This document shows positions 4,544 through 61,551 of a DNA stretch of 64,000 bases, one piece after another; the first letter of the stretch is position 1; each line of letters starts with the position of its first letter. The notes under the pieces are model-generated. The model was not told the origin of the DNA. It was given only the letters and a program-made list of their open reading frames with translations, and did not search any database. This DNA is from Nitrosopumilus sp. (lineage in GTDB: Archaea > Thermoproteota > Nitrososphaeria > Nitrososphaerales > Nitrosopumilaceae), in assembly GCA_965223425.1 (NCBI GenBank), contig OZ245003.1, positions 1,568,001-1,632,000 of the forward strand, written 5' to 3'. Both the position numbers and the translations under genes were made by a program.

Positions 4544-4621
4544 AAGAGGACATTATTATAAACTGACGGTTAATCAGTTATTTTCACTATATTTATTTAT
4601 TAAAATCACATTTTTAATTTC

Positions 4622-4711
4622 ATGTCAAAAGCATATGAATACAGAGTTGTCTCAAAGATAGATAAAGACAAGATTCCAAGATTATCATCGCGCATTGATG
4701 TCTGTGATTGA
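4622..4711 (+). pseudogene. remnant of the integrase 5' end
   Basis: MSKAYEYRVVSKIDKDKIPRL resembles MTKEEHQYRVISKMDCKKISKKL of the 11078 integrase; stop after 29 codons. Confidence 0.7.
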
Positions 4712-4987
4712 CAGTTCTATATTATCTGTTTTGAAAACTGTGAGCAGTTATACAAAAAAATTACCTAAACCATCCAAGACGCACCAATGTAGAATTAACA
4801 TCTTCATATTATCTGTATCAAAAAAGAATTTTGTGGGCGGGTAGATAGATTGTATGCCTATCATGTACGAATTAGATATTGATTATGTTTTTTCATATTC
4901 AATTAAGAATTCAACAGCCGCCAATACCAACACCGAAGATTTAGAGAAATTAGCTATGAACGGTCTTGATGAACGAGTGAGAAAAAA

Positions 4988-5063
4988 GTACTGTTAACAA
5001 TAGAGGATCTTTTGCCAGCTGACACGCTCAATAAGCATCTCGGATCCTCAAAAGTTAAGTGCC
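4988..5063 (+). repeat. palindromic hairpin repeat, copy 1
   Basis: ttaac-aata-gaggatc...gatcctc-aaaa-gttaa; near-identical copy at 5657-5735. Confidence 0.85.
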
Positions 5064-5167
5064 CATAGGGTACTACAAATTTTGGTCTATTCAAGGCATT
5101 GTACATTTACAAAGGATTTGATCTGATTTGCCGACATGTTTTTAATTCTTGAAGAACAATCAAACTC

Positions 5168-5252
5168 GTCAGGGTCGCCAAGTTAGGTATGGCGTGTGTC
5201 TGAAAAACACATATCTCCTTCGGATGCATGGGTTCAAATCCCATCCCTGACG
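5168..5252 (+). tRNA. type II (long variable arm, G73, Ser-like body) tRNA with GAA anticodon
   Basis: acceptor GTCAGGG/CCCTGAC; D arm GCC..GG..GGC; anticodon stem TGTGT/ACACA with loop CT-GAA-AA; 16-nt variable region; T arm ATGGG-TTCAAAT-CCCAT; TATA-like ttttaatt about 25 nt upstream. Confidence 0.8.
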
Positions 5253-5292
5253 GGTTTATAGCATCTGTGTGGTATTGAGTCTTTAAAAAGTT

Positions 5293-5480
5293 TCATTGTT
5301 TGGTCTTTGCTAATTCCTTGAGTATGTCTCCATTACATGGTTTGGGACTGCACCAGCATCCCAAAACCCTGTTTTTTAGTTCAGGCAGATCTGCGATCAG
5401 TTCTGGTTGTGTCATGATCCATATGCGATACTGCAATAACCTGTTTGCGTGTGCCGTCTCTTCGGATGACAAATGGATTG
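5293..5480 (-). pseudogene. frameshifted, 5'-truncated DUF4326-like gene
   Basis: NPFVIRRDGTRKQVIA and YRIWIMTQPELIADLPELKNRVLGCWCSPKPCNGD lie in different frames; intact homologue at 30397. Confidence 0.8.
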
Positions 5481-5656
5481 CTGTCAATTCCAAAAGTTTG
5501 CAGTCGTAGACAGTACAATTCGTAGAAGTCTTTGTCATACATCATATTCACATATTTTTTATAGAAATAGACGGTCAATACGACAAAAAGTAATGTGGCC
5601 ATTCCCAAAATAATTATTGCAATTCCACTGTCGGTCATTTTCTTTCTCCCCTGATG

Positions 5657-5735
5657 GGTACTGTTAACAATAGAGGACTTTTGCCAGCTGACACGCTCAA
5701 TGTGGCGTCTCGGATCCTCAAAAGTTAACGGTGCC
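5657..5735 (+). repeat. palindromic hairpin repeat, copy 2
   Basis: ggtactgttaac...gttaacggtgcc 12-bp arms with two G-T pairs; inner gagga/tcctc stem. Confidence 0.85.
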
Positions 5736-5831
5736 TTGATCTGGCGGTTAAATCAAACAGATCAGGCCAGTTAGAATGTGTAAATCAACCTTGGTAACGT
5801 TTTAAACCTGAAAAATTTCATTTTATTTTGT

Positions 5832-5906
5832 GCCAATGTAGCTCAGCCTGGTTAGAGCAGCTGATTTGTAATCAGCAGGTCGTGGGTTCGGATCCCGTCA
5901 TTGGCT
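5832..5906 (+). tRNA. tRNA-Thr(TGT)
   Basis: GCCAATG/CATTGGC acceptor, GCTGA-TT-TGT-AA-TCAGC anticodon arm, GTTCGGATC T loop, U73. Confidence 0.95.
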
Positions 5907-6109
5907 TTTAAATTTCTTAAATCAAGTTATCATCATACAATTTCAGTTAAGCGAAATGTAAACAGAACATTCCTTTTGTTTTGTTATTAAACACAATTTG
6001 AGTCACATTCCAATTGTTCTATTCCTATTTTTTGTCCGATTTTTAGTACATTTCGCTTAACTGAATTTGGCAATACGATTAAGTATGCAAGAATTTTGAA
6101 CAAATTCAA

Positions 6110-7060
6110 ATGAGTTCAGATGATTTTGAATCGAGTAAAAATAGTGATCAAAGCACTGAGCAAAATAGTGATCAAAGCACTGAGCAAAATAGTGATCAAA
6201 GCACTGAGCAAAATAGTGATCAAAGCACTGAGCAAAATAGTGATCAAAGCACTGAGCAAAATAGTGATCAAAGCACTGAGCAAAATAACAATAAAAAAAT
6301 ATCTGTGAAAAAATCAACATTTAATGGACTAGTCATAGGACTGATTGCAGCAGTTGGAATTACGGCGTTTCTGGCAGGATCATATGCATCAAATCTGAAC
6401 TCAGATCAGATTTCCCAAGAAGACTTGGAAAACGCTATTGCCAAACTAGAACTTAAAATATTGCAAAACCAGTTACCGACAGAGCAACCCAAACCAATAG
6501 TAAAAATTTCAATAGATGATGATCCCATTATTGGAAATCCAGATGCCGCAATCTCAATAATTGAATTTTCAGATTTCCAATGCCCATTTTGTGCACGATT
6601 CCATATTCAAACACTTCCATCGATTCTTGAAGAATACATAGACCAAGGCAAAGTAAAACTAGTTTTCAGGGACTTTCCAATTCAAAGTATTCATCCAAAC
6701 GCATTGCCTGCATCAGTAGCTGCAGAATGTGCAAATGAACAAAACAAATTCAAAGAAATGCACGACATGCTATTTGAGAATCAAAATGAATGGGATAAAC
6801 AAGAAACCGCAGATGCAATATCTTTGTTTAATCAGTACGCTTCTGAAATTCAACTAGATCAAGATGAATTTGTGTCCTGTCTTACTGATGAAAAACAGAT
6901 TGATGAGATCAGAAAAGATCTTGATGATGGAAGAGAGTATGGTGTGTCAGGAACACCGGGATTCTTTGTAGGAAATGACAAGATAGGATATGTCGAGATA
7001 AAAGGAGCCCAGCCATTTGAAAGCTTCAAAAAAATCATCGATGCTCAACTAGACGCATAA
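6110..7060 (+). CDS. membrane-anchored DsbA-family thiol-disulfide oxidoreductase
   Basis: EFSDFQCPFC, FRDFP, GVSGTP cis-Pro motif; N-terminal repeats and TM helix. Confidence 0.9.
   Translation: MSSDDFESSKNSDQSTEQNSDQSTEQNSDQSTEQNSDQSTEQNSDQSTEQNSDQSTEQNNNKKISVKKSTFNGLVIGLIAAVGITAFLAGSYASNLNSDQISQEDLENAIAKLELKILQNQLPTEQPKPIVKISIDDDPIIGNPDAAISIIEFSDFQCPFCARFHIQTLPSILEEYIDQGKVKLVFRDFPIQSIHPNALPASVAAECANEQNKFKEMHDMLFENQNEWDKQETADAISLFNQYASEIQLDQDEFVSCLTDEKQIDEIRKDLDDGREYGVSGTPGFFVGNDKIGYVEIKGAQPFESFKKIIDAQLDA
6138..6287 (+). repeat. 24-bp coding tandem repeat x6 (NSDQSTEQ)
   Basis: aaaatagtgatcaaagcactgagc repeated 6 times. Confidence 0.95.
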
Positions 7061-7162
7061 AAATAACAAGCGTTTATTAGACCTAAACCAAGACGGCAAA
7101 CATCAGAATAATGACGAGCAGGCAATGAGCTTTTTCGTCATTGCTTAAGAGAAGAAAACAAA

Positions 7163-8470
7163 ATGACAAAGTTTGACGAATTAGGATTAAAAGAAGAGAT
7201 ACTAAAAGGAATTCGTGATCTTGGGTATGAAGAGACATTTCCAATACAAGAAGCGGTAATCCCAGTGCTAATTACAGGAAGAGATGTTGTAGGACAAGCT
7301 CATACTGGTTCTGGTAAGACTGCAGCTTTTGCACTATCAATGTTACAAGAAATCCAACCAAAAAATGGAATCCAGGGACTAATCATGGCACCCACAAGAG
7401 AACTTGCAATGCAGATTACCGATGAGATTAAAAAATTTAGCAAATATACCAAAATTAGAGTAGCAACAGTTTATGGAGGACAAGGGATGGGACTACAACT
7501 GGATGCTCTTGAGAGAGGAGTAGAAATTGTTGTAGCAACACCTGGCAGACTAATAGATCATCTCAAAAGAGGGTCAATTGATCTCAGAGATGTCACACAT
7601 ATTGTTCTAGATGAGGCAGACACAATGCTAGATATGGGATTTATTGACGATATTCAGTTCATTTTAGATCTAGCACCAGAAGAAAGAGCAATGTCATTGT
7701 TTTCAGCAACAATGCCAACTGAAATTCTTAGACTCTCTGAAGAATATCTAAAGAATCCAAAGCAATTCCTATTGGATGCAGATGATCTTAGTGGGGAAGG
7801 GATAGACCAATCATATTTAGTAATTAAAGACAGAGACAAATTCAAGTATCTAATTGATTTTATCAAGCCAGTAAAAGGCCAATGCATTGTGTTTTGTTCA
7901 ACAAAATACAGAACCAGAGACGTAGCAAAATTCCTGCATCAGGAGAAATTTGTTGCAGTGGCAATAGAAGGAGACATGTCACAGCACAGAAGAGAGCAAT
8001 CAATGAGCAAGTTCAGGAGCGGGAAAGCTGATGTTCTTGTTGCCACAGATGTAGCATCAAGAGGCATAGATGTTCCAAGAGTGGAATTGGTAATCAACTA
8101 TGACGTACCAAATCAAGAAATGGTGTATTTCCACAGAATAGGAAGAACAGCTAGGGCAGGTGCAAAAGGCAAAGCAGTAACATTTGTTTCATATTCATCT
8201 GTTGGGGATTGGAACATCATCAAACGTCAAATCAAGGTTCCTATCAAAGACCTGAATCAAGAAATGGGAATTGAAATTTCAATTCCAGATCCTCTAAAAA
8301 GACAAGTTCCATCAAGAAGGTATGGGGGTCAATCAAGATCTAATTATTCCAGAGGAGGATATGGAAGAAGTGGCAGAAGCCGGGATTCTAGAGATGACAG
8401 AGGCAAAGGTAGAAGAAGATTCAATGACAGAGGCGGTAGGAGCAGATACGGTGGACACAGCAGATGGTAA
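7163..8470 (+). CDS. DEAD-box RNA helicase
   Basis: AHTGSGKT, PTRELA, TPGR, DEAD, SAT, HRIGRTARAG, RGG-rich tail. Confidence 0.95.
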   Translation: MTKFDELGLKEEILKGIRDLGYEETFPIQEAVIPVLITGRDVVGQAHTGSGKTAAFALSMLQEIQPKNGIQGLIMAPTRELAMQITDEIKKFSKYTKIRVATVYGGQGMGLQLDALERGVEIVVATPGRLIDHLKRGSIDLRDVTHIVLDEADTMLDMGFIDDIQFILDLAPEERAMSLFSATMPTEILRLSEEYLKNPKQFLLDADDLSGEGIDQSYLVIKDRDKFKYLIDFIKPVKGQCIVFCSTKYRTRDVAKFLHQEKFVAVAIEGDMSQHRREQSMSKFRSGKADVLVATDVASRGIDVPRVELVINYDVPNQEMVYFHRIGRTARAGAKGKAVTFVSYSSVGDWNIIKRQIKVPIKDLNQEMGIEISIPDPLKRQVPSRRYGGQSRSNYSRGGYGRSGRSRDSRDDRGKGRRRFNDRGGRSRYGGHSRW

Positions 8471-8522
8471 TTACTGTAAAACTTAAAGGGCTGAACCACG
8501 TAAATTAATACAAGATAAAGTA

Positions 8523-8756
8523 ATGCACAAAGGCTTCATTTTATTAAATTGTGATCTTGGCGCTGAAGAATACATCGTAGATGAGTTAAAACAGTTACAG
8601 GAAATTAGTAACGCATATCTTACTTTTGGAGCATATGATGTAATTGGGGAGATTCAAACAGAAAACCAAGAAGAGTTTGAAAAAACAATTGCAGTAATAA
8701 GAAAACTCTCCAGAGTGGTCAGCACAATGACACTAAATGTGATTAGCCCCGAATAA
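8523..8756 (+). CDS. Lrp/AsnC ligand-binding domain protein
   Basis: TFGAYDVI and STMTL motifs; 77 aa with no HTH. Confidence 0.8.
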   Translation: MHKGFILLNCDLGAEEYIVDELKQLQEISNAYLTFGAYDVIGEIQTENQEEFEKTIAVIRKLSRVVSTMTLNVISPE

Positions 8757-8788
8757 TTGTTATAGGAGTTAATTCGGATTATTTCAAA

Positions 8789-9079
8789 TTGCAGAAAATT
8801 GAGTATGAAGGAACAGTCTGGGTACTAAATTACAATAATCCTCAACCATTATTAGATCACGCGCTTCACATGCTAGAAAGACACGGAGTCAAACGTGAAG
8901 ATATGGAAATAACAGAAACACCAACTGCCAAAGTAGGCGCAATAGTAGTTGAGATTTGGCCATACGAGTTGGTAGTGGCCAAAGTCAGAACAACTCGCAA
9001 TGACTCATTTATCAGCGGTACTGAATTTACAATTGAACTAAAATTAGACGAGGATGGAAATTATATAGATTATCTTTGA
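8789..9079 (+). CDS. hypothetical protein
   Basis: ORF overlapping the next gene's start. Confidence 0.6.
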   Translation: MQKIEYEGTVWVLNYNNPQPLLDHALHMLERHGVKREDMEITETPTAKVGAIVVEIWPYELVVAKVRTTRNDSFISGTEFTIELKLDEDGNYIDYL

Positions 9080-9765
9080 AGAAAAAGAAAATTCAAAACA
9101 TCATAATTGTCGGAATTGCCATTAGCATTATTGGCGCAATTGCCTCATACAACTATTCAGTTGAGCAGACCAAACAAAAAGGCCTTCAATTCGGAATGGC
9201 ATTAGAACGAATTGAAAAAGATGTAAGCGATTTACAGACAAAATTTTATTCTGAAAAAAACAGTTGGCAAGAAGGGGACATTTCAAAAGAAAGACTGTTA
9301 GAATTTTATGAAATACATTTGAATGAGTTTAAAGAAATAATTTCCAAGTATGACGAATTAACACCGCCAGAATTATTCAAAAGTTCAGTGGTACTGTTAA
9401 AACTCTCGTCTGAAACTCAACTACAAAGTGACTCTGAATATATTGAATGGATAAAAACAGGAGATGAGTCAGCAAAAATAAGATCAGATACATTAATTCA
9501 AGAAGCTTATGAATATCAGAATTTGGGATTGGCTGAATTTCAATCAGCCAAAGCAGGTGTAAAACATTACGTTGGAGGGGAAAAGTTTGAAGAGCCACAG
9601 AGCATTTCATCACAAAAAGTCATACAAGTATCAGAAAACATGAAAAGCATGTGTGAAAAAGAATTTAGAAATGAGTCAGGAGGGTTTGACTCTGATCAAA
9701 CAGAAATTGATTGGTTTAATTGCGTGAATGAGGCCGAAGGATGGAAAACCGAACACCTGCCATAA
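9076..9765 (+). CDS. N-terminally anchored hypothetical protein
   Basis: basic N-terminus, TM helix, helical domain. Confidence 0.65.
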   Translation: MKKKKIQNIIIVGIAISIIGAIASYNYSVEQTKQKGLQFGMALERIEKDVSDLQTKFYSEKNSWQEGDISKERLLEFYEIHLNEFKEIISKYDELTPPELFKSSVVLLKLSSETQLQSDSEYIEWIKTGDESAKIRSDTLIQEAYEYQNLGLAEFQSAKAGVKHYVGGEKFEEPQSISSQKVIQVSENMKSMCEKEFRNESGGFDSDQTEIDWFNCVNEAEGWKTEHLP

Positions 9766-9814
9766 CATCAAGTATCAACAAAAACTTCTTTAAAGAACAT
9801 AACTCAAACCAATT

Positions 9815-10573
9815 ATGGAAAAATTTTTTATCATTGCAATGATTCTTGTTGGGTTTATGCCAATAGCATTTGGCGAAGTGTTGATTCAAAATGATCAACA
9901 GTATGTCGGAGACGATGGCACATTTCACGTTGTTGGCGAGATTAAAAATGACTTGGAAGCTCCATTAAGCCAGATTAGCGTTCATGTAACTATGTTTGAC
10001 GAAAATCAAAACCCAATTGTAACAAAAGAAACCAATTCCTTAGTCAACACAGTCATGCCAGGAATGAAGGCCCCATTTGATCTTGTTTTAGCAGATAGTA
10101 AAGCAGGAAACATTGAATCGTATTCGTTGGAATTAGATTACAAAGTTAGCCCTCCAAAAAATCAAGTCATAGATATCATAGAATCAGAGTTGACTAGAGA
10201 CAGTCACAATAATTTGATGATAACTGGAACTGTCACAAATAAAGGGGATATCACAGCTAACACGGTTGCAATAATTGCAACACTATACGACAAAGAAGGC
10301 AATGTTGCTGCAGTGTCTAGAGTTCACCCAGAACCAGACTATCTTAGGGTAGAAGATAATGCATTCTTTTTAGTGACAGTTCCAGATAAAATTCAAACTA
10401 ATGGCATCAATGATTTCACACTGATTGCAGAATCCGAAGAGTATGCAGCTGTTCCAGAATTTCCCATAGGCACGCTTGTTTTGCTGGCAGGTACTTTGTC
10501 TGCATACATTGGAATTACAAAGTGTTCAGGCAGAATCATAACAAACCTGATTTCTGCAACAAATCTAAAGTAG
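9815..10573 (+). CDS. secreted FxLYD-domain protein with PEF-CTERM sorting signal
   Basis: two G.I.N...(M/L)(F/Y)D repeats and a VPEFP + TM tail. Confidence 0.75.
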   Translation: MEKFFIIAMILVGFMPIAFGEVLIQNDQQYVGDDGTFHVVGEIKNDLEAPLSQISVHVTMFDENQNPIVTKETNSLVNTVMPGMKAPFDLVLADSKAGNIESYSLELDYKVSPPKNQVIDIIESELTRDSHNNLMITGTVTNKGDITANTVAIIATLYDKEGNVAAVSRVHPEPDYLRVEDNAFFLVTVPDKIQTNGINDFTLIAESEEYAAVPEFPIGTLVLLAGTLSAYIGITKCSGRIITNLISATNLK

Positions 10574-10997
10574 GAAAGATTTCCTCCATCAACTCTGTTT
10601 TTTCAAGGGGGATGGGTTTTGAAAACTTTACTTGAAAAGTAATTGTCAACATGTCCTGGTCAGTGTGAGAGATTCTAACAGAATGGACATGACGATCAGT
10701 TTGGGATAGGAAATTTTTCCATTTTTCTATATGTCCTGCTACACGAGCCACATTTTTTTCTACTGTAGAGATATCAGTATCCAAATCAGTATCAAATAAC
10801 CCAAATTTGACAAGAGGAACCATGATTACTCCGCCCAAAACTTTATCATGGTTTTGTAGCATTGTAGAAATAATTTTTTCATGATTTTCTTTAGGATAAA
10901 TATCTCCATAATCAGGATCAAAATATCCTGCAATCATTTTTTTAGAGTCATATATACGAAAAAAGTCTTCGTCAGATTCTAATTTCCACAACACCAT
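10536..10997 (-). CDS. conserved hypothetical protein
   Basis: 153-aa ORF with host-like composition. Confidence 0.6.
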   Translation of the reverse strand: MVLWKLESDEDFFRIYDSKKMIAGYFDPDYGDIYPKENHEKIISTMLQNHDKVLGGVIMVPLVKFGLFDTDLDTDISTVEKNVARVAGHIEKWKNFLSQTDRHVHSVRISHTDQDMLTITFQVKFSKPIPLEKTELMEEIFPTLDLLQKSGLL

Positions 10998-11077
10998 GAA
11001 AATAATTTATGAGTAAATAAACGATTAACCATCCGTTTTCACTAACTTTATTTATTAAAATCACAAAAACTAGGCAC

Positions 11078-12760
11078 ATGACAAAGGAAGAACATCAATA
11101 CAGAGTAATATCAAAGATGGATTGCAAAAAAATATCTAAAAAACTCAGATCCACAATTTTAGAGTTAAATGTAGGTGATGAGATCAGCGTAAAATCCTTT
11201 TTTGAGAAACATAAACAGGCACTTGATTTTAAAAATGACAGGACTGCCAGAAACAGAATCGCAAATGCGTTTAAAATAGCACATGTGGAAAACACGATTG
11301 AGAGAATAAATGACCCGGCCGCTCCCGAATGGTTCAAAAAACTGGATACTGTCTCTTTCTGGCAATTACAGCTTCGCGGCAGCAAGTTCAAAAACTCAGA
11401 TGGCACAAAAACCTCCACTACAAAAACACAGTACCTGTTCCATTTGTGGCATTTCAACAAATGGATATTGGAAAAAACATTCACAATAAACACACTTCAG
11501 GCAGGCAGTGGGGGCCATTTTTTACAAAAGACAGAGGCAAGAAAATTCAGGAATGTCGAGGAGGTTCTGAGGATTCTGGAACAGCCGTTTTTCGATCAGA
11601 AAAATGTAATCCGGATCATAAAGCAGTATCTCTTGGATGCTTCTCTGCATTCGCATAAAAAGGCATCATACATGGCTATAACCAAAAACGCAATCGTGTC
11701 ATACTTTGAGAAAAACGAGTACCCACTGAAAATCATGTTCAATCCAAAGGTACCATACAATACGGAAAGTGAGGACCAGAACATGTCCCTTTCAGACCTT
11801 ATGGAGTTTTTAACTACCGGAAAGCCGTCAATATTGGAAAAAACCGTATTCCTATGCAAGTTTCAAAGGGGACTGGATGTATCAACACTTGTTGACAGGT
11901 TCAACTATGAGGCATGGGAACAGGTTGCAAAATGGTTCGGTTCAGAGAACCATGACTCGTGGGATTTGGAAAAGTGTCCGGTGCCCGTATCCCTTGTTCG
12001 GATAAAGACAGACTACAAGCACGTTGGATTTTTGGACAGGGATGCAATTGAGATGTTGCAGAAATATCTGGATTACAGAAAAACAAAAACAGAAACAGAT
12101 ATGCAAAAAGGGGAACCGTTATTTCTGAATAAATTTAACAGGGCGATATCTGCTGGATGGATGTTTAATAGTTTCTCACGCATTGCAAAAAGGGCCGGAA
12201 TCCAAAAATTTACGGAAATCAATGGCAGAAAACAGTACAAGATGGACTCGCACGAACTGCGGGACCTGCTAAAATCCACACTGATTGATTCCGGGTGCAG
12301 AATTGATGTGGCAGACCACGTCATTGGCCACAAGCCAAGGGACTCGTATGAGAAGCAGGCAATACTGTACCCCGAAACCCTGAGAAGGGAGTACTCCAAG
12401 GCCTCAAAGAGGCTCAACATATTTACAAAGTTCACAAGTGTCGTGTCAGGAAATGATGATGCAGACGAGCTGGGGGTGGAACTGCGGGAGAAACTGTCGG
12501 AACTGGAGAAGATAAGGGAAGGCAGGCTTGATGAGGAGGCGGCAAGGTATCGCAGCGAAATGGTTGCAGCAGAGCAGAAGAGGCAGATGGGGGGCCTCCT
12601 GGATACGGTAAACGAGCTCAAATCACAGATTGATTCCATGAAAAATGGCGGCCCCAAAAAACTAGAGTTTTGCTGCATTGACTGCAGTACCGTACATGGA
12701 AAACAAGAGTGTCCTTCCTGCGGTTCCATGATGAAGAGGATTTACGAGTCTTCTTCATGA
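11078..12760 (+). CDS. tyrosine recombinase/integrase with C-terminal coiled coil and Zn ribbon
   Basis: RIKT, HELR (HxxR), HVIGH, SYE catalytic Tyr; CIDC...CPSC tail. Confidence 0.9.
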   Translation: MTKEEHQYRVISKMDCKKISKKLRSTILELNVGDEISVKSFFEKHKQALDFKNDRTARNRIANAFKIAHVENTIERINDPAAPEWFKKLDTVSFWQLQLRGSKFKNSDGTKTSTTKTQYLFHLWHFNKWILEKTFTINTLQAGSGGHFLQKTEARKFRNVEEVLRILEQPFFDQKNVIRIIKQYLLDASLHSHKKASYMAITKNAIVSYFEKNEYPLKIMFNPKVPYNTESEDQNMSLSDLMEFLTTGKPSILEKTVFLCKFQRGLDVSTLVDRFNYEAWEQVAKWFGSENHDSWDLEKCPVPVSLVRIKTDYKHVGFLDRDAIEMLQKYLDYRKTKTETDMQKGEPLFLNKFNRAISAGWMFNSFSRIAKRAGIQKFTEINGRKQYKMDSHELRDLLKSTLIDSGCRIDVADHVIGHKPRDSYEKQAILYPETLRREYSKASKRLNIFTKFTSVVSGNDDADELGVELREKLSELEKIREGRLDEEAARYRSEMVAAEQKRQMGGLLDTVNELKSQIDSMKNGGPKKLEFCCIDCSTVHGKQECPSCGSMMKRIYESSS

Positions 12761-30396: not shown

Positions 30397-30654
30397 ATGA
30401 TTAGAATAGTCCACAACAAAAATGAGAAATACGATATTTTAATCGACAGGACGGGCAAGTGGGGAAATCCATTTGTCATCCCAAGAGACGGCACACGCAG
30501 GGAGGTTATTGCAAAGTATCGCGCGTGGATCATGACACAGCCACAGCTGATCGCAGATCTGCCCAGACTAAAAAACAAGGTTTTGGGATGCTGGTGCAGT
30601 CCCAAGCCATGTCACGGGGATGTACTGAAAGAATTGGCAGAGGCCGAGCAATGA
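30397..30654 (+). CDS. DUF4326-like protein
   Basis: IDR..KWGNPF, LGCWCSPKPCHGDVL. Confidence 0.85.
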   Translation: MIRIVHNKNEKYDILIDRTGKWGNPFVIPRDGTRREVIAKYRAWIMTQPQLIADLPRLKNKVLGCWCSPKPCHGDVLKELAEAEQ

Positions 30655-30694
30655 AACTTTTTAAAGATTCAAGACCGCACAGATACTATAAACC

Positions 30695-30774
30695 CGTCAT
30701 GGATGGGATTTGAAACCGTGGTACACGATCAGTGGTTTTCAGTCACCCGCCATACCTAACTTGGCGACCCTGAC
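30695..30774 (-). pseudogene. degenerate copy of the Ser-like tRNA(GAA)
   Basis: 5' 27 nt identical to the 5168 copy; CTGAAAA loop kept; mismatches in acceptor, anticodon and T stems; shorter variable region. Confidence 0.75.
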
Positions 30775-30803
30775 GAGTTTGATTGTTTTTTAAGAATTAA
30801 AAC

Positions 30804-32424: not shown

Positions 32425-33291
32425 ATGCCGTACAAATGCCTGTGTCCGAGGCCGCACCTTTATGAGGACCGTCACAACGGGGAGATCTGCTGCTCTGTGT
32501 GCGGAACGGTACTTGACTGCGGCACTCCATGTGCCACGGTGCATGCTGAAAAAAACAACCTTGGAATGGATAACTACGGGATAGGAACAAAGCCCGTAGG
32601 CGTGAGAACCGGCCGCATTATCCCGACTGAAACTATGGCAAGCAAGATTTGCCGCAAACGCACGCCAGAGGCCGGGCTGTTTAAGGCGATGATGCCAATA
32701 CTTGAGAAAATTTCGGCCCCGAGGCACATGATGGACGGGTCGTTTATGTTTGGCAGAAAGGTGATCGCCAGCGGGATTGCCAAGAACCGGATGACAGTCG
32801 CAGTAGCTGCCGCCTGCATACTTGCAGTCAGCAGGACTTACAGAAAGGTGATATCTGAGAAGGAGATGGCCGCAATTGCAAACATAGAGAAGAAGAATAT
32901 CGGCAGGGTATACAGGATTATCCAGAAGGAGTTTGGCATTCCTGCTGCGGACCTGTCCCACAGAACGCGGGCGATAATCTCAAAGTCGTGTGCCATGCTG
33001 GGAATTTCAATGCACCTGCAACGCGAATCACTTGAGCTCTTTTCCGTGCTTAACCACCGCGAGATGACTCACGGAAGGAATCCGTACGTCGTGGCAGGTG
33101 CAGTCATATACATGGCTGCAAAAAAACACGGCAATGGGGTGACATTTAAAAAAATGTCAAGCGTGTGCGACGTGACGGCAAATGGGATTATAAACGCCTA
33201 CGAAAAGTTTGCGTGCTGTGACGTGACAAGCGGTGGGGCCGCCGGCGGCCGGAAGAAAATGAGGCCGGCAGGCACTGGTCGACATGAATAG
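32425..33291 (+). CDS. tfb: transcription factor B (TFIIB) homologue
   Basis: Zn ribbon C..H...GEICCSVCGTV; two cyclin repeats (VAAACILAVSR, GRNPYVVAGAVIYMA). Confidence 0.8.
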   Translation: MPYKCLCPRPHLYEDRHNGEICCSVCGTVLDCGTPCATVHAEKNNLGMDNYGIGTKPVGVRTGRIIPTETMASKICRKRTPEAGLFKAMMPILEKISAPRHMMDGSFMFGRKVIASGIAKNRMTVAVAAACILAVSRTYRKVISEKEMAAIANIEKKNIGRVYRIIQKEFGIPAADLSHRTRAIISKSCAMLGISMHLQRESLELFSVLNHREMTHGRNPYVVAGAVIYMAAKKHGNGVTFKKMSSVCDVTANGIINAYEKFACCDVTSGGAAGGRKKMRPAGTGRHE

Positions 33292-37955: not shown

Positions 37956-38580
37956 GTTATGGAAGCGATCGGAAAAAAAATTCATTCCAGTTGTGATTTT
38001 GATATTTTGGAAAAATTGGTTTTGAAAAGTTGTAAAAAATTGAATATCATATATGAAAACGGTAAAAATAGAGTGGTAATAGTTATGATGATCGCTAACC
38101 TTCCAACTTCTTCCAGACTACCTTCATTTCCACTCTCTAGATTTTCGCCTTTTTTGGTAAAAAATGCGATCTTTTTTAGATTTTCTGATCGCAAAATTTT
38201 GTTTTTTGGTGAAAATGACGAAATTCGTTAAAATCCTAAAATTTGAACGGTTAATAATGGCAAATTCCAGTCATTTTTGGAAATTTTAGCGAATTCCGAA
38301 GTTCTATAGGCAGACATCACAAATTAGACAAAAACAAAAAATTTTGATCGCAAAAATTTCGTGCCTAGAATTTGGTGAAAATCGGCCAAAAAACCAATTC
38401 CTTCCAGTCATTCCAGTCATTCCAGTCTTATATTTAGCCCATATAATTGATAAAAATGCGATCCATTTGCCTAAAAAGTGCAGTTATACGGGCTAAATAG
38501 AAAAAGACTGGAATGGCTGGAATGTGGAACATAATTTACAGACCCAGTTCCAACTGGTGCATATCCATCTAATTGGTCAT
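37956..38580. promoter_or_regulatory. AT-rich non-coding putative replication origin with inverted repeat
   Basis: ttccagtc x3 at about 38402-38427; imperfect inverted repeat about 38409-38447 / 38483-38524; recurring gatcgcaaaa / aaaatgcgatc. Confidence 0.6.
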
Positions 38581-39078
38581 GGAACGTCATTTTTGTAAAA
38601 ACGGACTCCAAATTGACAGATAACTGGAATGAATGGAACGTCATTTTTGTAAAAACGGACTCCAAATTGACAGATAACTGGAATGAATGGAACGTCATTT
38701 TTGTAAAAACGGACTCCAAATTGACAGATAACTGGAATGAATGGAACGTCATTTTTGTAAAAACGGACTCCAAATTGACAGATAACTGGAATGAATGGAA
38801 CGTCATTTTTGTAAAAACGGACTCCAAATTGACAGATAACTGGAATGAATGGAACGTCATTTTTGTAAAAACGGACTCCAAATTGACAGATAACTGGAAT
38901 GAATGGAACGTCATTTTTGTAAAAACGGACTCCAAATTGACAGATAACTGGAATGAATGGAACGTCATTTTTGTAAAAACGGACTCCAAATTGACAGATA
39001 ACTGGAATGAATGGAACGTCATTTTTGTAAAAACGGACTCCAAATTGACAGATAACTGGAATGAATGGAACGTCATTT
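38581..39078 (+). repeat. 54-bp perfect tandem repeat, 9 copies plus a partial (iteron-like)
   Basis: ggaacgtcatttttgtaaaaacggactccaaattgacagataactggaatgaat starting at 38581, 38635 ... 39013, partial at 39067. Confidence 0.97.
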
Positions 39079-39147
39079 GATGGTACACAAACTCTCGTTT
39101 TTCAATTTTGATGTAACTTTGTCCAAACTTTTGGTCAAAGTATCTAT

Positions 39148-41586
39148 TTGACTGACAAGAATCTACTCTTTCTCTCCTCAATAATTCAGGATGGAAATAT
39201 GACTTTGAAATTCTATGATGAATCAGAGAGAAAAATAGTGACAGTAAATGCAGGAAAGTACGATCATTATTCTCTGGTCAGAGACGACACAGGAGACATA
39301 ACAAAGCACGACCTAATCACAGACAGGCCGGCCAGGTTTAGGATTTCAACTGACTTGTCGCAGGAAAAAACAAATGAGAAGGAGGTCAGTGACATATCCT
39401 CTTACATATATGACAATAATCTCAACCCCGGCAGGTTCTATACAATTTCCAACGGAAAGATACTTCTCAAAGAAATGGAGATATCAACAGAAATGGAGGA
39501 TGCACTGACTGAAATTATAGACCAGGGCATTGGTTTTGGAATGCCAGATAAGCACAGCTACCACAAACAGATGATAGAGACGGCAAGAATTCTATCTGAA
39601 CCAATCCCCGACATTTCCCGCCTTGCATTTGACATAGAGATCGAGCCGGCCGGAGACGGTGGAATTGATGTAAATCACGCAAGCAAAAAGATAACGGCAG
39701 TCTCCTTTTCATCCAATGACGGTCTTGCCGCATGTCTTGTGCTCGGAGATGAAAACGATACCAGAAAAATATCACTAAAATCCACCGATTTGACAGTACG
39801 GATATTCGATTCGGAATCGGCGATGCTAAAGGAGTCATTTACAATTATGAAGGGATTTCCATGCTGGCTGACTTTTTTTGGCAGACGCTTTGACCTGCCA
39901 TACATGTATAATCGCGCAAATCAGCTTGGGCTGTCCGTCCACAGGGACATGATGACTATGCGCCTAAAGGGCGGGCAGACGATGGCAGCCCCGATAAAAT
40001 CAATACATTTGGACTTGCATGACATCTTTTCCAATCCAGCACTGTACACGTATGCATTTTCTGAGAAATACGGATCATACTCACTTGATGACGTTGCAAC
40101 TGCGATGCTGGGGGAGGGCAAGACCTCGTCAGGCTCCGAGGTGGGAACGATGTCAATGATGGAACTGGCAAAGTACTGCTATCAGGACTCCAAACTCACC
40201 ATGAACCTGACAAAATATGCAAACAATGCCGTGATGAACATGATGGTGATACTGTCGAGAATCTCCGTGATGGGAATTGACGATGTCTCCCAAACCAGGG
40301 TCTCAACCTGGATCTGCTCGATGCTCTGGAACAATCACAGGAAGACAAACGCGATAATACCGCGAAGGGATGAGCTTGACTCCAAGACCACATCACACCT
40401 GAGAATGAGCGAGTCCTCAATAATTAGCGGAAAAAAGTATCGCGGCGGAATGGTTCTGGAGCCAAAGATGGGAGTCCACTGGGGGATGACTGTTCTTGAC
40501 TTTGCCTCGATGTATCCGCACCTGATGCAGATTCACAACCTCTCCTATGAGACTGTGATGTGTCCGCACGAGGAGTGCAAGTCAAACTCCATACCATCCA
40601 CCGAATATCACACGTGCACAAAAAGAAACGGCATGCTTGCAGAGATGATCGGAACGCTGCGTGAGCTGCGCGTGCACGTCTTCAAGCGATTCTCACAGAA
40701 CAGAGAGGTCCCAAAGGAGCAGAGGGAACTCTACAAGATAATTGCCGGGGCAATCAAGGTCTTCATGAACGCAAGCTACGGCGTCATGGGGTCTGACCTG
40801 TTCTCAATATATTACCTCCCAGTAGCAGAGTCAGTCACCGCATCGGGCAGAAAAATAATTGCAGATACGATGGAGCGGTGCAAAGACATGGGGGTGGAAG
40901 TGCTGTATGGCGACACTGACTCGCTGTTTGCTGCTGGAATCACAAAATCCCAACGTGAGAAGATAATATCTGAAACTGCAAAAATTCACGGCACCGAGCT
41001 TGAGGTGGACAAGGAATACAGGTTTGCAATACTTACCGAGCTGAAAAAGAACTATCTGGGAATAATGGAGGACGGATCAAGTGAAATCAAGGGACTGACA
41101 GGCAAAAAGTCACACACTCCAAAATTTATAAGAAAATCATTCCGCGACGTTGTGAAAATTCTCTCCGACGTAAAGTCCGAGGAGGAGATGGGGCCGGCAA
41201 TCAGGCAGATCATCTCGCACATACAGCGGGACATAGAGAGAATCAACACCCATGACATATCACTGGAGGATCTCACATTTAGGATGAAGATAACAAAGCC
41301 GATCTCAGAGTACACAAAGAGCCAGCCGCAGCATGTCACGGCAGCAAAGATACTTGGGGAGAAGTGCGGTGTGGAGGTGCAGCAGGGAAGCGTAATCCAG
41401 TACATCAAGACTGCAACTGCGCCGTATGTCACTCCCATGGAGCTTGCAAACATCGACTCCATCTCCACAAAAAAATACACAGAGTCACTCTCATCTGTCA
41501 TGGGGCAGATACTTCCCGCGCTTGGCACCTCGATGGAGGTGATAATTACCGGCTCCAAGCAGGACTCCATTGAGAGCTTTACATAA
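39148..41586 (+). CDS. polB: family B DNA polymerase (archaeal B1-like, RNA-primed type)
   Basis: FDIE, FDLPY, YCYQD exonuclease motifs; LDFASMYP, KVFMNASYG, YGDTDS, KKNY; CPHEEC insert. Confidence 0.95.
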   Translation: MTDKNLLFLSSIIQDGNMTLKFYDESERKIVTVNAGKYDHYSLVRDDTGDITKHDLITDRPARFRISTDLSQEKTNEKEVSDISSYIYDNNLNPGRFYTISNGKILLKEMEISTEMEDALTEIIDQGIGFGMPDKHSYHKQMIETARILSEPIPDISRLAFDIEIEPAGDGGIDVNHASKKITAVSFSSNDGLAACLVLGDENDTRKISLKSTDLTVRIFDSESAMLKESFTIMKGFPCWLTFFGRRFDLPYMYNRANQLGLSVHRDMMTMRLKGGQTMAAPIKSIHLDLHDIFSNPALYTYAFSEKYGSYSLDDVATAMLGEGKTSSGSEVGTMSMMELAKYCYQDSKLTMNLTKYANNAVMNMMVILSRISVMGIDDVSQTRVSTWICSMLWNNHRKTNAIIPRRDELDSKTTSHLRMSESSIISGKKYRGGMVLEPKMGVHWGMTVLDFASMYPHLMQIHNLSYETVMCPHEECKSNSIPSTEYHTCTKRNGMLAEMIGTLRELRVHVFKRFSQNREVPKEQRELYKIIAGAIKVFMNASYGVMGSDLFSIYYLPVAESVTASGRKIIADTMERCKDMGVEVLYGDTDSLFAAGITKSQREKIISETAKIHGTELEVDKEYRFAILTELKKNYLGIMEDGSSEIKGLTGKKSHTPKFIRKSFRDVVKILSDVKSEEEMGPAIRQIISHIQRDIERINTHDISLEDLTFRMKITKPISEYTKSQPQHVTAAKILGEKCGVEVQQGSVIQYIKTATAPYVTPMELANIDSISTKKYTESLSSVMGQILPALGTSMEVIITGSKQDSIESFT

Positions 41587-61480: not shown

Positions 61481-61551
61481 CGGACACGTCGGGAGCCGGA
61501 CCCGAATCTCCCAGTTCTTACGTAGGTGCATGGCCGTCATGCTACGTGCCC
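61481..61551 (-). ncRNA. tRNA-like cloverleaf (atypical or pseudo-tRNA)
   Basis: GGGCACG-TA-GCAT-GACGGCC-ATGC-A-CCTAC-GTAAGAA-CTGGG-AGAT-TCGGG-TCCGGCT-CCCGA-CGTGTCC-G. Confidence 0.7.

Follow-up and report, generated by a model that had tools for sequence, protein, structure and literature searches.

What does a tRNA gene do that joins the long-armed body of a serine tRNA to the anticodon of phenylalanine, and which amino acid would its product bring to the ribosome? The question is raised by the gene at positions 5168-5252 (plus strand) of a 64,000-nt stretch of the genome of the marine archaeon Nitrosopumilus sp. (assembly GCA_965223425.1, contig OZ245003.1, positions 1,568,001 to 1,632,000), here termed the window. 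Positions are those of the window unless prefixed. G000 is the source genome (2.64 Mb, 41% G+C), other G numbers are genomes of relatives, L numbers are loci or records pulled from genomes or metagenomes, and the family of the 5168-5252 tRNA is called X-type. An earlier note, made from the letters of the window alone, had drawn attention to the gene as a possible mistranslating tRNA. The answer that we hold with moderate confidence, from sequence comparison, is that it is a working accessory tRNA borne by mobile elements, which would be charged by the single seryl-tRNA synthetase (SerRS) of the host and would put serine at UUY codons.

That the gene is an intact class II, serine-type, tRNA gene with a GAA anticodon is confirmed. 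ARAGORN calls a tRNA with this anticodon at 5167-5253 on the plus strand, and finds no intron in it with introns allowed. Against the Rfam tRNA model (RF00005) 5168-5252 scores 58.1 bits, the gathering score being 29, with no non-standard pair flagged, and membership is supported both by this score and by the universal tertiary nucleotides, all of which are there (U8, A14, G15/C48, G18G19, A21, U33, a purine at 37 and T54-C56/A58). Read from the sequence, the acceptor, D, anticodon and T stems have 7, 4, 5 and 5 bp; the anticodon loop, with the anticodon at 5202-5204, is CUGAAAA and the T loop UUCAAAU; the variable region of 16 nt contains a 4-bp stem; and the discriminator, at 5252, is G (G73), CCA not being encoded. 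Upstream is a putative promoter and 5′ leader (5139-5167), with a TATA-like run at 5139-5147 (−29 to −21 relative to the tRNA) and a leader ending in AAACUC, and downstream a T-rich 3′ trailer that begins GGUUUAU (5253-5262). An A/T-rich element at about −31 to −21, a leader ending in AAACUC and the trailer GGUUU are recurrent in most of 20 family members compared. ARAGORN, Rfam and the sequence itself thus agree with the earlier description of a paired cloverleaf with a 16-nt variable arm, G73, a GAA loop and a TATA-like box. The note had also argued that the GAA loop is not a base-call error. This holds, as contigs from three DNA runs (X1, X2 and X4, of two studies) span the gene with no variant letter within 5168-5252, which excludes such an error at A35. 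It should be borne in mind that ARAGORN labels genes of this type by the anticodon (GAA) alone.

For the body of the tRNA, everything tested points to serine. SerRS, whether of the archaeal or the bacterial type, takes serine identity from elements that include G73 and G30:C40 and not from the anticodon, and archaeal leucyl-tRNA synthetase (LeuRS) is blocked by G73 (PMC9976931). The serine set of G73, a 16-nt variable arm and G30:C40 is present in 5168-5252. In an alignment confined to the X-type (A6, 16 rows) G73 is invariant, and the 30:40 pair (columns 31-41) is GC in 13 rows, though the pair is shared by the tRNA-Leu of G000 and so does not discriminate alone. The D loop has the length found in the four tRNA-Ser of G000 and is 2 nt shorter than that of its tRNA-Leu. 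A covariance model built from the three X-type copies in G000 (R1) scores these four tRNA-Ser at 64.1, 58.6, 57.4 and 52.8 bits, above all tRNA-Leu (at most 50.2) and tRNA-Phe (46.5); the exception to this order of classes is a class I tRNA at C1:2204831, called tRNA-Thr(CGU) by ARAGORN, which at 50.7 bits comes just below the weakest tRNA-Ser.

Searches blind to the anticodon lead in the same direction. With the D-arm motif, the 13 tRNAs listed from genome records comprise seven genuine archaeal tRNA-Ser, six hybrids and no tRNA-Leu, and the same D arm is found in L083, a canonical tRNA-Ser(GGA) with an intron, from a related lineage. With D arm, T loop and class II spacing combined, 119 of the 121 metagenome and viral matches listed have a serine anticodon; the other two are a true tRNA-Leu(UAA) with A73 and a G73 hybrid with GAG. 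This last hybrid, on metagenome contig L293, is class II with the same D arm and stands outside the Nitrosopumilus family, and hybrids of the X-type design may be more widespread.

Phenylalanyl-tRNA synthetase (PheRS) in model systems relies on the GAA anticodon, its strongest determinant, and on A73, G20 and G37. Of this set 5168-5252 has GAA, and has a class II body, G73, U20 and A37 instead of a class I body, A73, G20 and G37. Anticodon aside, the body therefore appears to carry the serine identity set and to be without the phenylalanine one, so that its earlier classification as serine-type rather than phenylalanine-type survives on G73, the variable arm, G30:C40 and D-loop length. By decoding it is not a tRNA-Ser, its anticodon being GAA and not NGA or GCU. 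Neither is it a tRNA-Leu, which would have A73, a longer D loop and a leucine anticodon, nor a tRNA-Sec, for which UCA and the archaeal 9/4 fold would be expected in place of GAA and a 7/5 fold.

Since G000 has a normal tRNA-Phe(GAA) of its own (class I, with A73, G20 and G37) and normal tRNA-Ser for four anticodons (UGA, CGA, GCU and, in an intron-bearing gene, GGA), the 5168-5252 gene is an extra. Another X-type paralogue in G000, at C1:1117192-1117281, has a different but fully paired anticodon stem, the loop UUGAAAA and G73. A dedicated extra synthetase was considered and rejected: there is one SerRS gene in G000, and no aminoacyl-tRNA synthetase (aaRS) domain among the proteins of the window. 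ARAGORN lists no tRNA-Leu(UAA), tRNA-Trp or tRNA-Glu(UUC) in G000; these genes are probably intron-bearing.

The X-type is a conserved family of patchy distribution. Of 151 genomes of the genus, 11 (G000 included) have matches to R1 at E≤1e-14, 16 in total, and 140 have none. R1 finds no member in another 26 genera of the family Nitrosopumilaceae (141 genomes), the single match at 74 bits being an ordinary tRNA-Ser(GCU). In a set of 60 relatives, of which 24 belong to other families of the order, only G009 and G036 are clearly above the level of tRNA-Ser (87.9-96.9 bits), the best other matches reaching at most 70.6 bits. The matches listed from a pattern scan of one genome per species include an X-type GAA tRNA in a Nitrosotalea metagenome-assembled genome (MAG; L114), a 5′-truncated GAA copy (L079) and, in a Nitrosopumilaceae MAG, a tRNA of class II (L096) that shares the D arm and has UUC as its anticodon. 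In addition, a contig from another study (X5, record 27, depth 529.7) that aligned to 5162-5212 proved to be a different X-type tRNA, resembling the copy in G167, and from its high depth related elements are abundant in at least one other sample.

What has been kept within the family is informative. Alignment A2 has 19 rows, 18 of them X-like and one an ordinary tRNA-Leu, and the anticodon of the X-like rows is GAA in 15, GAU in two and CAU in one, with a serine anticodon in none. In A6, whose rows were fitted to a model in a way that favours the structure, 97% of the cells of the cloverleaf are paired (33-47% in slid controls), with changes on both sides in 13 of 21 pairs; none of 500 shuffles reaches these values. 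The compensatory changes occur in all four stems, that of the anticodon included. Pairwise identity ranges from 58% to 99% (median 78%), and across this range no row departs from U33, G34, A35, A37, A38 or G73, while A36 is seen in 15 of 16. All 16 have the long variable arm, which is shortened in the degenerate copy L046. Because G34, A35 and G73 are invariant over such divergence, and stems covary and leader and promoter region are conserved, the pattern of the family, as far as alignments can tell, is one of purifying selection in which the GAA anticodon is a functional part, and not that of a drifting pseudogene. The earlier note had named homologues with GGA or random anticodons as the sign of simple drift; the homologues found keep GAA or else have GAU or CAU, and do so on stems that change in a compensated manner.

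The most original element of the finding is a conserved helix that would mask the anticodon. The minimum-free-energy (MFE) fold of 5168-5252 is not the cloverleaf but an alternative with a ‘lock’ helix at 5196-5227 (−31.3 kcal/mol, versus −28.3 with the cloverleaf enforced). In it 5196-5204, comprising the 3′ part of the 5′ strand of the anticodon stem and C32, U33, G34, A35 and A36, pairs with 5219-5227, which is the loop and 3′ strand of the variable arm plus 2 nt. In A6 (columns 29-37 with 62-70) 85.5% of the cells of this helix are paired, versus 10-46% for slid controls. Pairs 29-70 and 35-64, the latter involving G34, are GC in 16 of 16 rows, and 36-63 (A35) is AU in 12; pair 30-69 is found in four types (AU, UA, UG and GU), pair 33-66 goes from CG to UA in three rows, and in L044 three adjacent pairs have switched together. 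Column 69 has no partner in the cloverleaf, so that the way in which it covaries with the anticodon stem does not simply follow from the stem of the variable arm. The lock helix supplants the anticodon and variable stems in the MFE folds of nine of the 16 members. The anticodon stem is retained in the MFE fold, a calculation that ignores modifications and tertiary contacts, by two of 16 X-type members; among serine-type controls that share the D arm the figure is 113 of 119, and among the canonical tRNAs of G000 it is 21 of 34. In the tRNA-Ser of G000 no lock helix is seen by inspection. An intron reading of the variable arm, with a bulge-helix-bulge (BHB), was rejected, as ARAGORN finds no intron and excision of the segment enclosed by the lock gives no cloverleaf on inspection. 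If the lock helix is real, the RNA would be bistable, its alternative fold hiding both the anticodon and the arm recognised by SerRS, and the helix would be a possible restraint or switch on an otherwise toxic adaptor.

The claim that the gene is borne by a mobile element is strengthened by its relatives, since at 12 of 12 annotated X-type loci (a count that leaves out those of G167, G086 and G078) an integrase, a transposase or genes for element replication are found close by. G172 has four X-type tRNAs in tandem, three of them decayed, within an element that also holds MCM and TFIIB. In G009 the tRNA is followed by an element with an integrase and a PriX primase, duplicated as a 1.6-kb inverted repeat. 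In G159 and G154 it is followed by a rhodanese gene (98 aa; the two proteins share 90% identity and have no homologue in G000), with an integrase farther along. IS66-family transposases adjoin the X-type tRNA in G000 (near C1:1117k), G165 and G154, and other transposases are near it in G163 and G036. That the tRNA is simply a passenger of an insertion sequence (IS) was rejected, since the paralogue at C1:1117k lies between two multi-copy IS elements but outside either repeat unit; the distance from hybrid tRNA to IS end varies from 230 to 1860 nt. A rhodanese-superfamily gene is beside the X-type tRNA in five of the 12 annotated loci: DUF4326 at both loci of the window and in G172, and rhodanese in G159 and G154 (L178:9409-9705 and L180:10534-10830). 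DUF4326 is predicted, in the accessible portion of PMC9503650, to process ribose-linked phosphates in ADP-ribose conflict systems.

The X-type is not the only hybrid tRNA family in the genus. An alanine-type family has a 71-nt class I body with an acceptor stem starting G1-G2-G3-C4 and the pair G3:U70, and G3:U70 together with A73 is present in 27 of 29 hybrid rows. Its anticodons, read by eye from the loops of 31 aligned rows, are GAA in 12, AAG in seven, GAG in three, CAG in one, GUC in three, AUC in one, GAU in two and the normal alanine anticodon CGC in two; several members have C33 or A34, which is unusual for archaea. A model of this family (R2) has matches at E≤1e-12 in 16 of the 151 genomes, of which at least one (G072) has only a normal tRNA-Ala(CGC) among the matches listed. 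Within the window there is a decayed copy, with G73 and an altered T loop, at 61481-61551 (minus strand), and elsewhere in G000 there are copies at C1:129092-129163, 769461-769531 and 1454123-1454193. A second class II family, also with G73 but with a different acceptor stem, occurs in eight of the 151 genomes, its anticodons being GAU (five), GAA (two), CAG (one) and UAU (one). The two G000 copies, at C1:1696869-1696954 and 1698003-1698090 (L002:9870-9955 and 11004-11091), have GAU; their surroundings include an MmeI-type restriction-modification gene, an actin-like protein and a nuclease. Charging without regard to the anticodon is found chiefly for two identities, serine and alanine. That serine and alanine bodies have been fitted with phenylalanine, leucine, isoleucine and aspartate anticodons in one mobile gene pool argues for a common selective logic, to judge by the sequences.

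How would the 5168-5252 tRNA act if it is a serine-inserting accessory tRNA? It would be transcribed from its own TATA-type promoter and mature as an ordinary tRNA. The single SerRS would charge it with serine, reading the long variable arm and G73 (and G30:C40) and ignoring the anticodon; aEF1A would carry the seryl-tRNA to the ribosome; G34 would pair with UUC and UUU; and, in competition with the canonical tRNA-Phe, serine would be put at a fraction of phenylalanine codons. The conserved 8-bp alternative helix, in which positions 28-35 (G34 and A35 among them) pair with the 3′ strand of the variable arm, could be a built-in restraint or switch. What an element might gain is a matter for speculation, candidates being a toxin or addiction function, host shut-off, abortive infection and competition between elements. 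A role in conflict rather than in housekeeping is likewise speculative, though such a role would fit the finding that engineered yeast tRNA-Ser with GAA or GAU is very toxic. Taken further, the elements of Nitrosopumilus may carry a toolkit of mis-adapting serine and alanine tRNAs, with the GAA serine family RNA-locked until a trigger comes, as an RNA-only toxin or switch that would act by mistranslation across the proteome, in conflicts of elements with the host or with one another; that proposal we regard as unlikely.

Several points weigh against serine insertion at UUY codons. The same toxicity cuts the other way: since a freely expressed Ser-tRNA(GAA) should, to judge by yeast, be very harmful, the native gene must be restrained, weakly charged or silent. 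The codon usage of the element gives no hint of reliance on recoding, and recoding inside the element was rejected, as phenylalanine and serine codon fractions match those of the chromosome (4.43% versus 4.08% and 7.28% versus 7.30%, for 37 element open reading frames (ORFs) and 1694 others). In a maximum-likelihood tree the X clade has support of 91/91, but its placement relative to the serine and leucine clades is a polytomy. The acceptor stem, with U2-A71, C3-G70 and A4-U69, differs from that of host tRNA-Ser (C2-G71, G4-C69), a divergence that might lower recognition by SerRS. With GAA the main determinant for PheRS, some charging with phenylalanine is possible, and decoding of UUY may be poor where A37 stands in place of a wyosine-type G37. 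Several copies are decayed (30695-30774 in the window, three of the four in G172, and L079), so selection is not uniform. As for the lock helix, it was proposed from one of the very sequences in which it was tested, the independent covariation events are few, and MFE misfolding is frequent even in canonical tRNAs of the AT-rich G000 (13 of 34).

Of the other explanations, the one that survives best, though we think it improbable, is that the product is a tRNA-shaped RNA that takes no part in translation, either a decoy or sponge for an anticodon nuclease, a modifying enzyme or an aaRS, or a regulatory RNA working in the locked fold. A conserved alternative helix that hides the anticodon would suit it, as would the rhodanese-superfamily gene in five of 12 loci, given the tie of DUF4326 to ADP-ribose conflict systems (PMC9503650, as available). 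It also has a parallel in allo-tRNA(UAU), many of which did not function in translation and were associated with toxin-antitoxin loci or transposons (PMC5389517). However, a decoy needs no intact acceptor stem, G73, T loop or D loop, nor covariation in four stems, and as the anticodon stem covaries too, the cloverleaf must also be under selection. Nor is a nuclease partner apparent, since PADLOC, applied to 63 of the 77 ORFs called in the window, found no anticodon nuclease.

The absence of an anticodon nuclease from those ORFs also tells against a second and distinctly less probable explanation, a tRNA-Phe that has swapped its body. Here PheRS would charge the tRNA through GAA and UUY would be decoded correctly, the element gaining extra or nuclease-resistant decoding, as might help it against a defence that targets tRNAs and knows tRNA-Phe by its normal body. 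The strict conservation of GAA, as the strongest determinant for PheRS, is what would be expected, TTC is somewhat commoner in element genes (1.55% versus 1.07%), and phage tRNAs that evade anticodon nucleases are known. But the remaining determinants for PheRS in model systems are missing (G73, U20 and A37 being found), and GAU and CAU are likewise found on this body, as is UUC on a class II tRNA with the same D arm in L096; common to all of these is the serine identity set. Moreover, leucine anticodons are joined to class I bodies in the sister alanine-type family, and charging of these by archaeal LeuRS would not be expected.

The weakest explanation, that of a functionless, decaying relic, a mutated tRNA-Ser(GGA) copy left at an attachment site, is already disfavoured and very improbable: in its favour, GAA is one substitution from GGA, L083 shares the D arm, tRNA genes are the usual integration targets in the phylum of the host (39 of 68 elements; PMC6563490, as available), the 3′ end of the tRNA faces the integrase in G009, G159 and G154, and decayed copies exist, but GAA persists even at 58% identity, all four stems show compensatory change, promoter and leader are conserved, serine anticodons are found in none of 18 family rows, four copies are in tandem inside the G172 element, no second copy of the 21-nt 3′ end (≤2 mismatches) flanks the G159 or G165 islands, though shorter sites could escape this search (attachment sites in the phylum are as short as 8 bp; PMC6563490), and absence from 140 of 151 genomes of the genus marks the gene as cargo and not as a host target. 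[The same survey of integrated elements in the phylum, in the part available, handles tRNAs solely as integration targets.]

In the window the tRNA has a degenerate counterpart. The earlier note had taken 30695-30774 for a divergent second copy that has the same GAA loop on a different anticodon stem. The copy is real, and it does retain the CUGAAAA loop upon a different anticodon stem, but it lies on the minus strand and looks like a pseudogene, not an independent working gene: Rfam gives it 32.3 bits with four non-standard pairs (one in the acceptor stem, one in the anticodon stem and two in the T stem) and a shortened variable arm, and ARAGORN makes no call there. What the note had not seen is that both tRNA copies are inside the arms of an inverted repeat, left at 5140-5479 and right at 30466-30802, which lie about 25 kb apart and are 85-92% complementary in self-comparison (segments I1-I3). 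The right arm is within the large mobile element, and its gene order (PAPS-reductase-like gene, tRNA, DUF4326 and then MT-A70) is the same in the element of G172. Adjoining the degenerate tRNA is an intact DUF4326 gene of 85 aa at 30397-30654 (plus strand; Pfam E 1.7e-26), 79% identical to its G172 homologue. Near the intact tRNA there is a truncated or diverged DUF4326 ORF of 81 aa at 5293-5538 (minus strand; partial match to PF14216, E 1.3e-9), of which only the C-terminal 48 aa resemble the right-arm copy (75% blastp identity over 48 aa). Decay in the window is thus complementary, the left arm having an intact tRNA and a truncated DUF4326, and the right arm a decayed tRNA and an intact DUF4326.

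The intact tRNA and the DUF4326 remnant are together in an insertion of about 1.2 kb (4575-5792), between host genes and the only tRNA-Thr(UGU) of the genome. That it is an insertion follows from synteny, the flanking host blocks (1 to about 4574 and 5793 to 11031) being only 41-42 bp apart in G172 and G165 (aligned-block ends 428 and 470/471). A 52-nt direct repeat of 79% identity is found at 4559-4610, the left edge of the insertion, and at 11014-11065, the junction of host and integrase; candidates for its nature are a promoter-type repeat and an attachment-like site.

The large mobile region (11078-62100) opens with a tyrosine-recombinase (integrase) gene at 11078-12760 (plus strand; PF00589), host synteny having stopped at about 11032. 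It encodes ParB-like nucleases, MT-A70 and other DNA methylases, a NUDIX protein, a nucleoside deoxyribosyltransferase-like protein, two D5-type primase-helicases, PolB, SNF2 and DndB, as well as its own TFIIB homologue (32425-33291). A viral origin found no support: PHROGs reveals no capsid, portal or terminase in the element of the window, a ‘portal’ match being discounted because it sits on the NUDIX domain, and two pattern scans of IMG/VR found no X-type tRNA. Some 14 tandem copies of a 54-nt unit are at 38471-39186, just upstream of or overlapping the start of PolB, and there is a run of 12/24-nt repeats at 6114-6329 in the N-terminal part of a DsbA-like ORF. The IS load of G000 is very high, with about 36 copies of one 1.4-kb IS and at least eight of an IS66-family element, which fits the 2.64-Mb size of a genome most relatives of which are 1.2-2.2 Mb.

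How does the X-type compare with tRNAs in which identity and anticodon are known to disagree? The earlier note had called it allo-tRNA-like. That comparison stands for function and identity but not for the fold, as the allo-tRNAs of bacteria have serine-type identity with an 8/4 or 9/3 acceptor/T-stem geometry (Mukai et al., NAR 2017, PMC5389517), and with its 7/5 fold 5168-5252 is by definition not an allo-tRNA. The two share serine identity with a non-serine anticodon, a rare and patchy distribution and some decayed or inactive members, and allo-tRNAs are tied to transposons and toxin-antitoxin loci; unlike them, the X-type has an archaeal host, a canonical cloverleaf, GAA as its dominant anticodon and, as against what is described in the available part of that paper, a conserved anticodon-masking helix. 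A functional parallel comes from engineered yeast tRNAs, where tS-F(GAA) and tS-I(GAU) put serine at phenylalanine and isoleucine codons and, in toxicity, rank near the top of all 64 anticodons, GUC also being extremely toxic (Zimmerman et al., NAR 2018, PMC6125640). Like these, the X-type has a tRNA-Ser body, GAA or GAU, and A37; and the GAA, GAU and GUC of the mobile serine and alanine families are three anticodons named as highly toxic in that work. The yeast constructs, however, are laboratory products restrained by an engineered decay pathway, whereas the archaeal genes are natural, conserved and element-borne, so that any restraint would be intrinsic.

Natural mismatches of identity and anticodon include the dual-identity tRNAProX of Streptomyces and Kitasatospora, which has proline identity, A33 and a dedicated ProRSx, the tRNA-Ser/Ala(CAG) of CUG-clade yeasts, and human variants, some of the tRNAProX and CUG-clade cases having features that damp decoding (reviewed in PMC11415595, as available). 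The X-type differs from tRNAProX in that no extra synthetase is found with it, and from the CUG-clade yeasts in being accessory element cargo rather than an agent of genome-wide codon reassignment. With canonical archaeal tRNA-Ser(GGA) it has in common class II form, G73, G30:C40, the D-arm motif of L083 and a loop one base apart (CUGGAAA versus CUGAAAA); it is unlike that tRNA in its phenylalanine-codon anticodon, its lack of an intron (the tRNA-Ser(GGA) of G000 has one), its acceptor stem and its accessory, mobile nature. In the portion of the review available, archaea are mentioned only for EF1A and no archaeal case is described, and a literature search on Nitrosopumilus tRNAs, archaeal mistranslating tRNAs and allo-tRNA found no archaeal precedent.

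What is new, then, is a tRNA with mismatched identity and anticodon in an abundant marine archaeal genus, on a canonical and well-conserved fold, and beyond it multi-copy families of both anticodon-blind identities, serine and alanine, in mobile DNA, with anticodons that include three (GAA, GAU and GUC) ranked in yeast among the most harmful. For the annotation of such genomes, calling by anticodon alone as ‘tRNA-Phe’ hides genes of this kind and can distort inferences about tRNA sets. Natural mismatch tRNAs are known from bacteria, some yeasts and human variants, and a covarying helix that would hide both the anticodon and the arm recognised by SerRS offers a concrete idea of how a dangerous adaptor might be carried safely. 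If that is true, mistranslation would join the weapons or switches of mobile elements.

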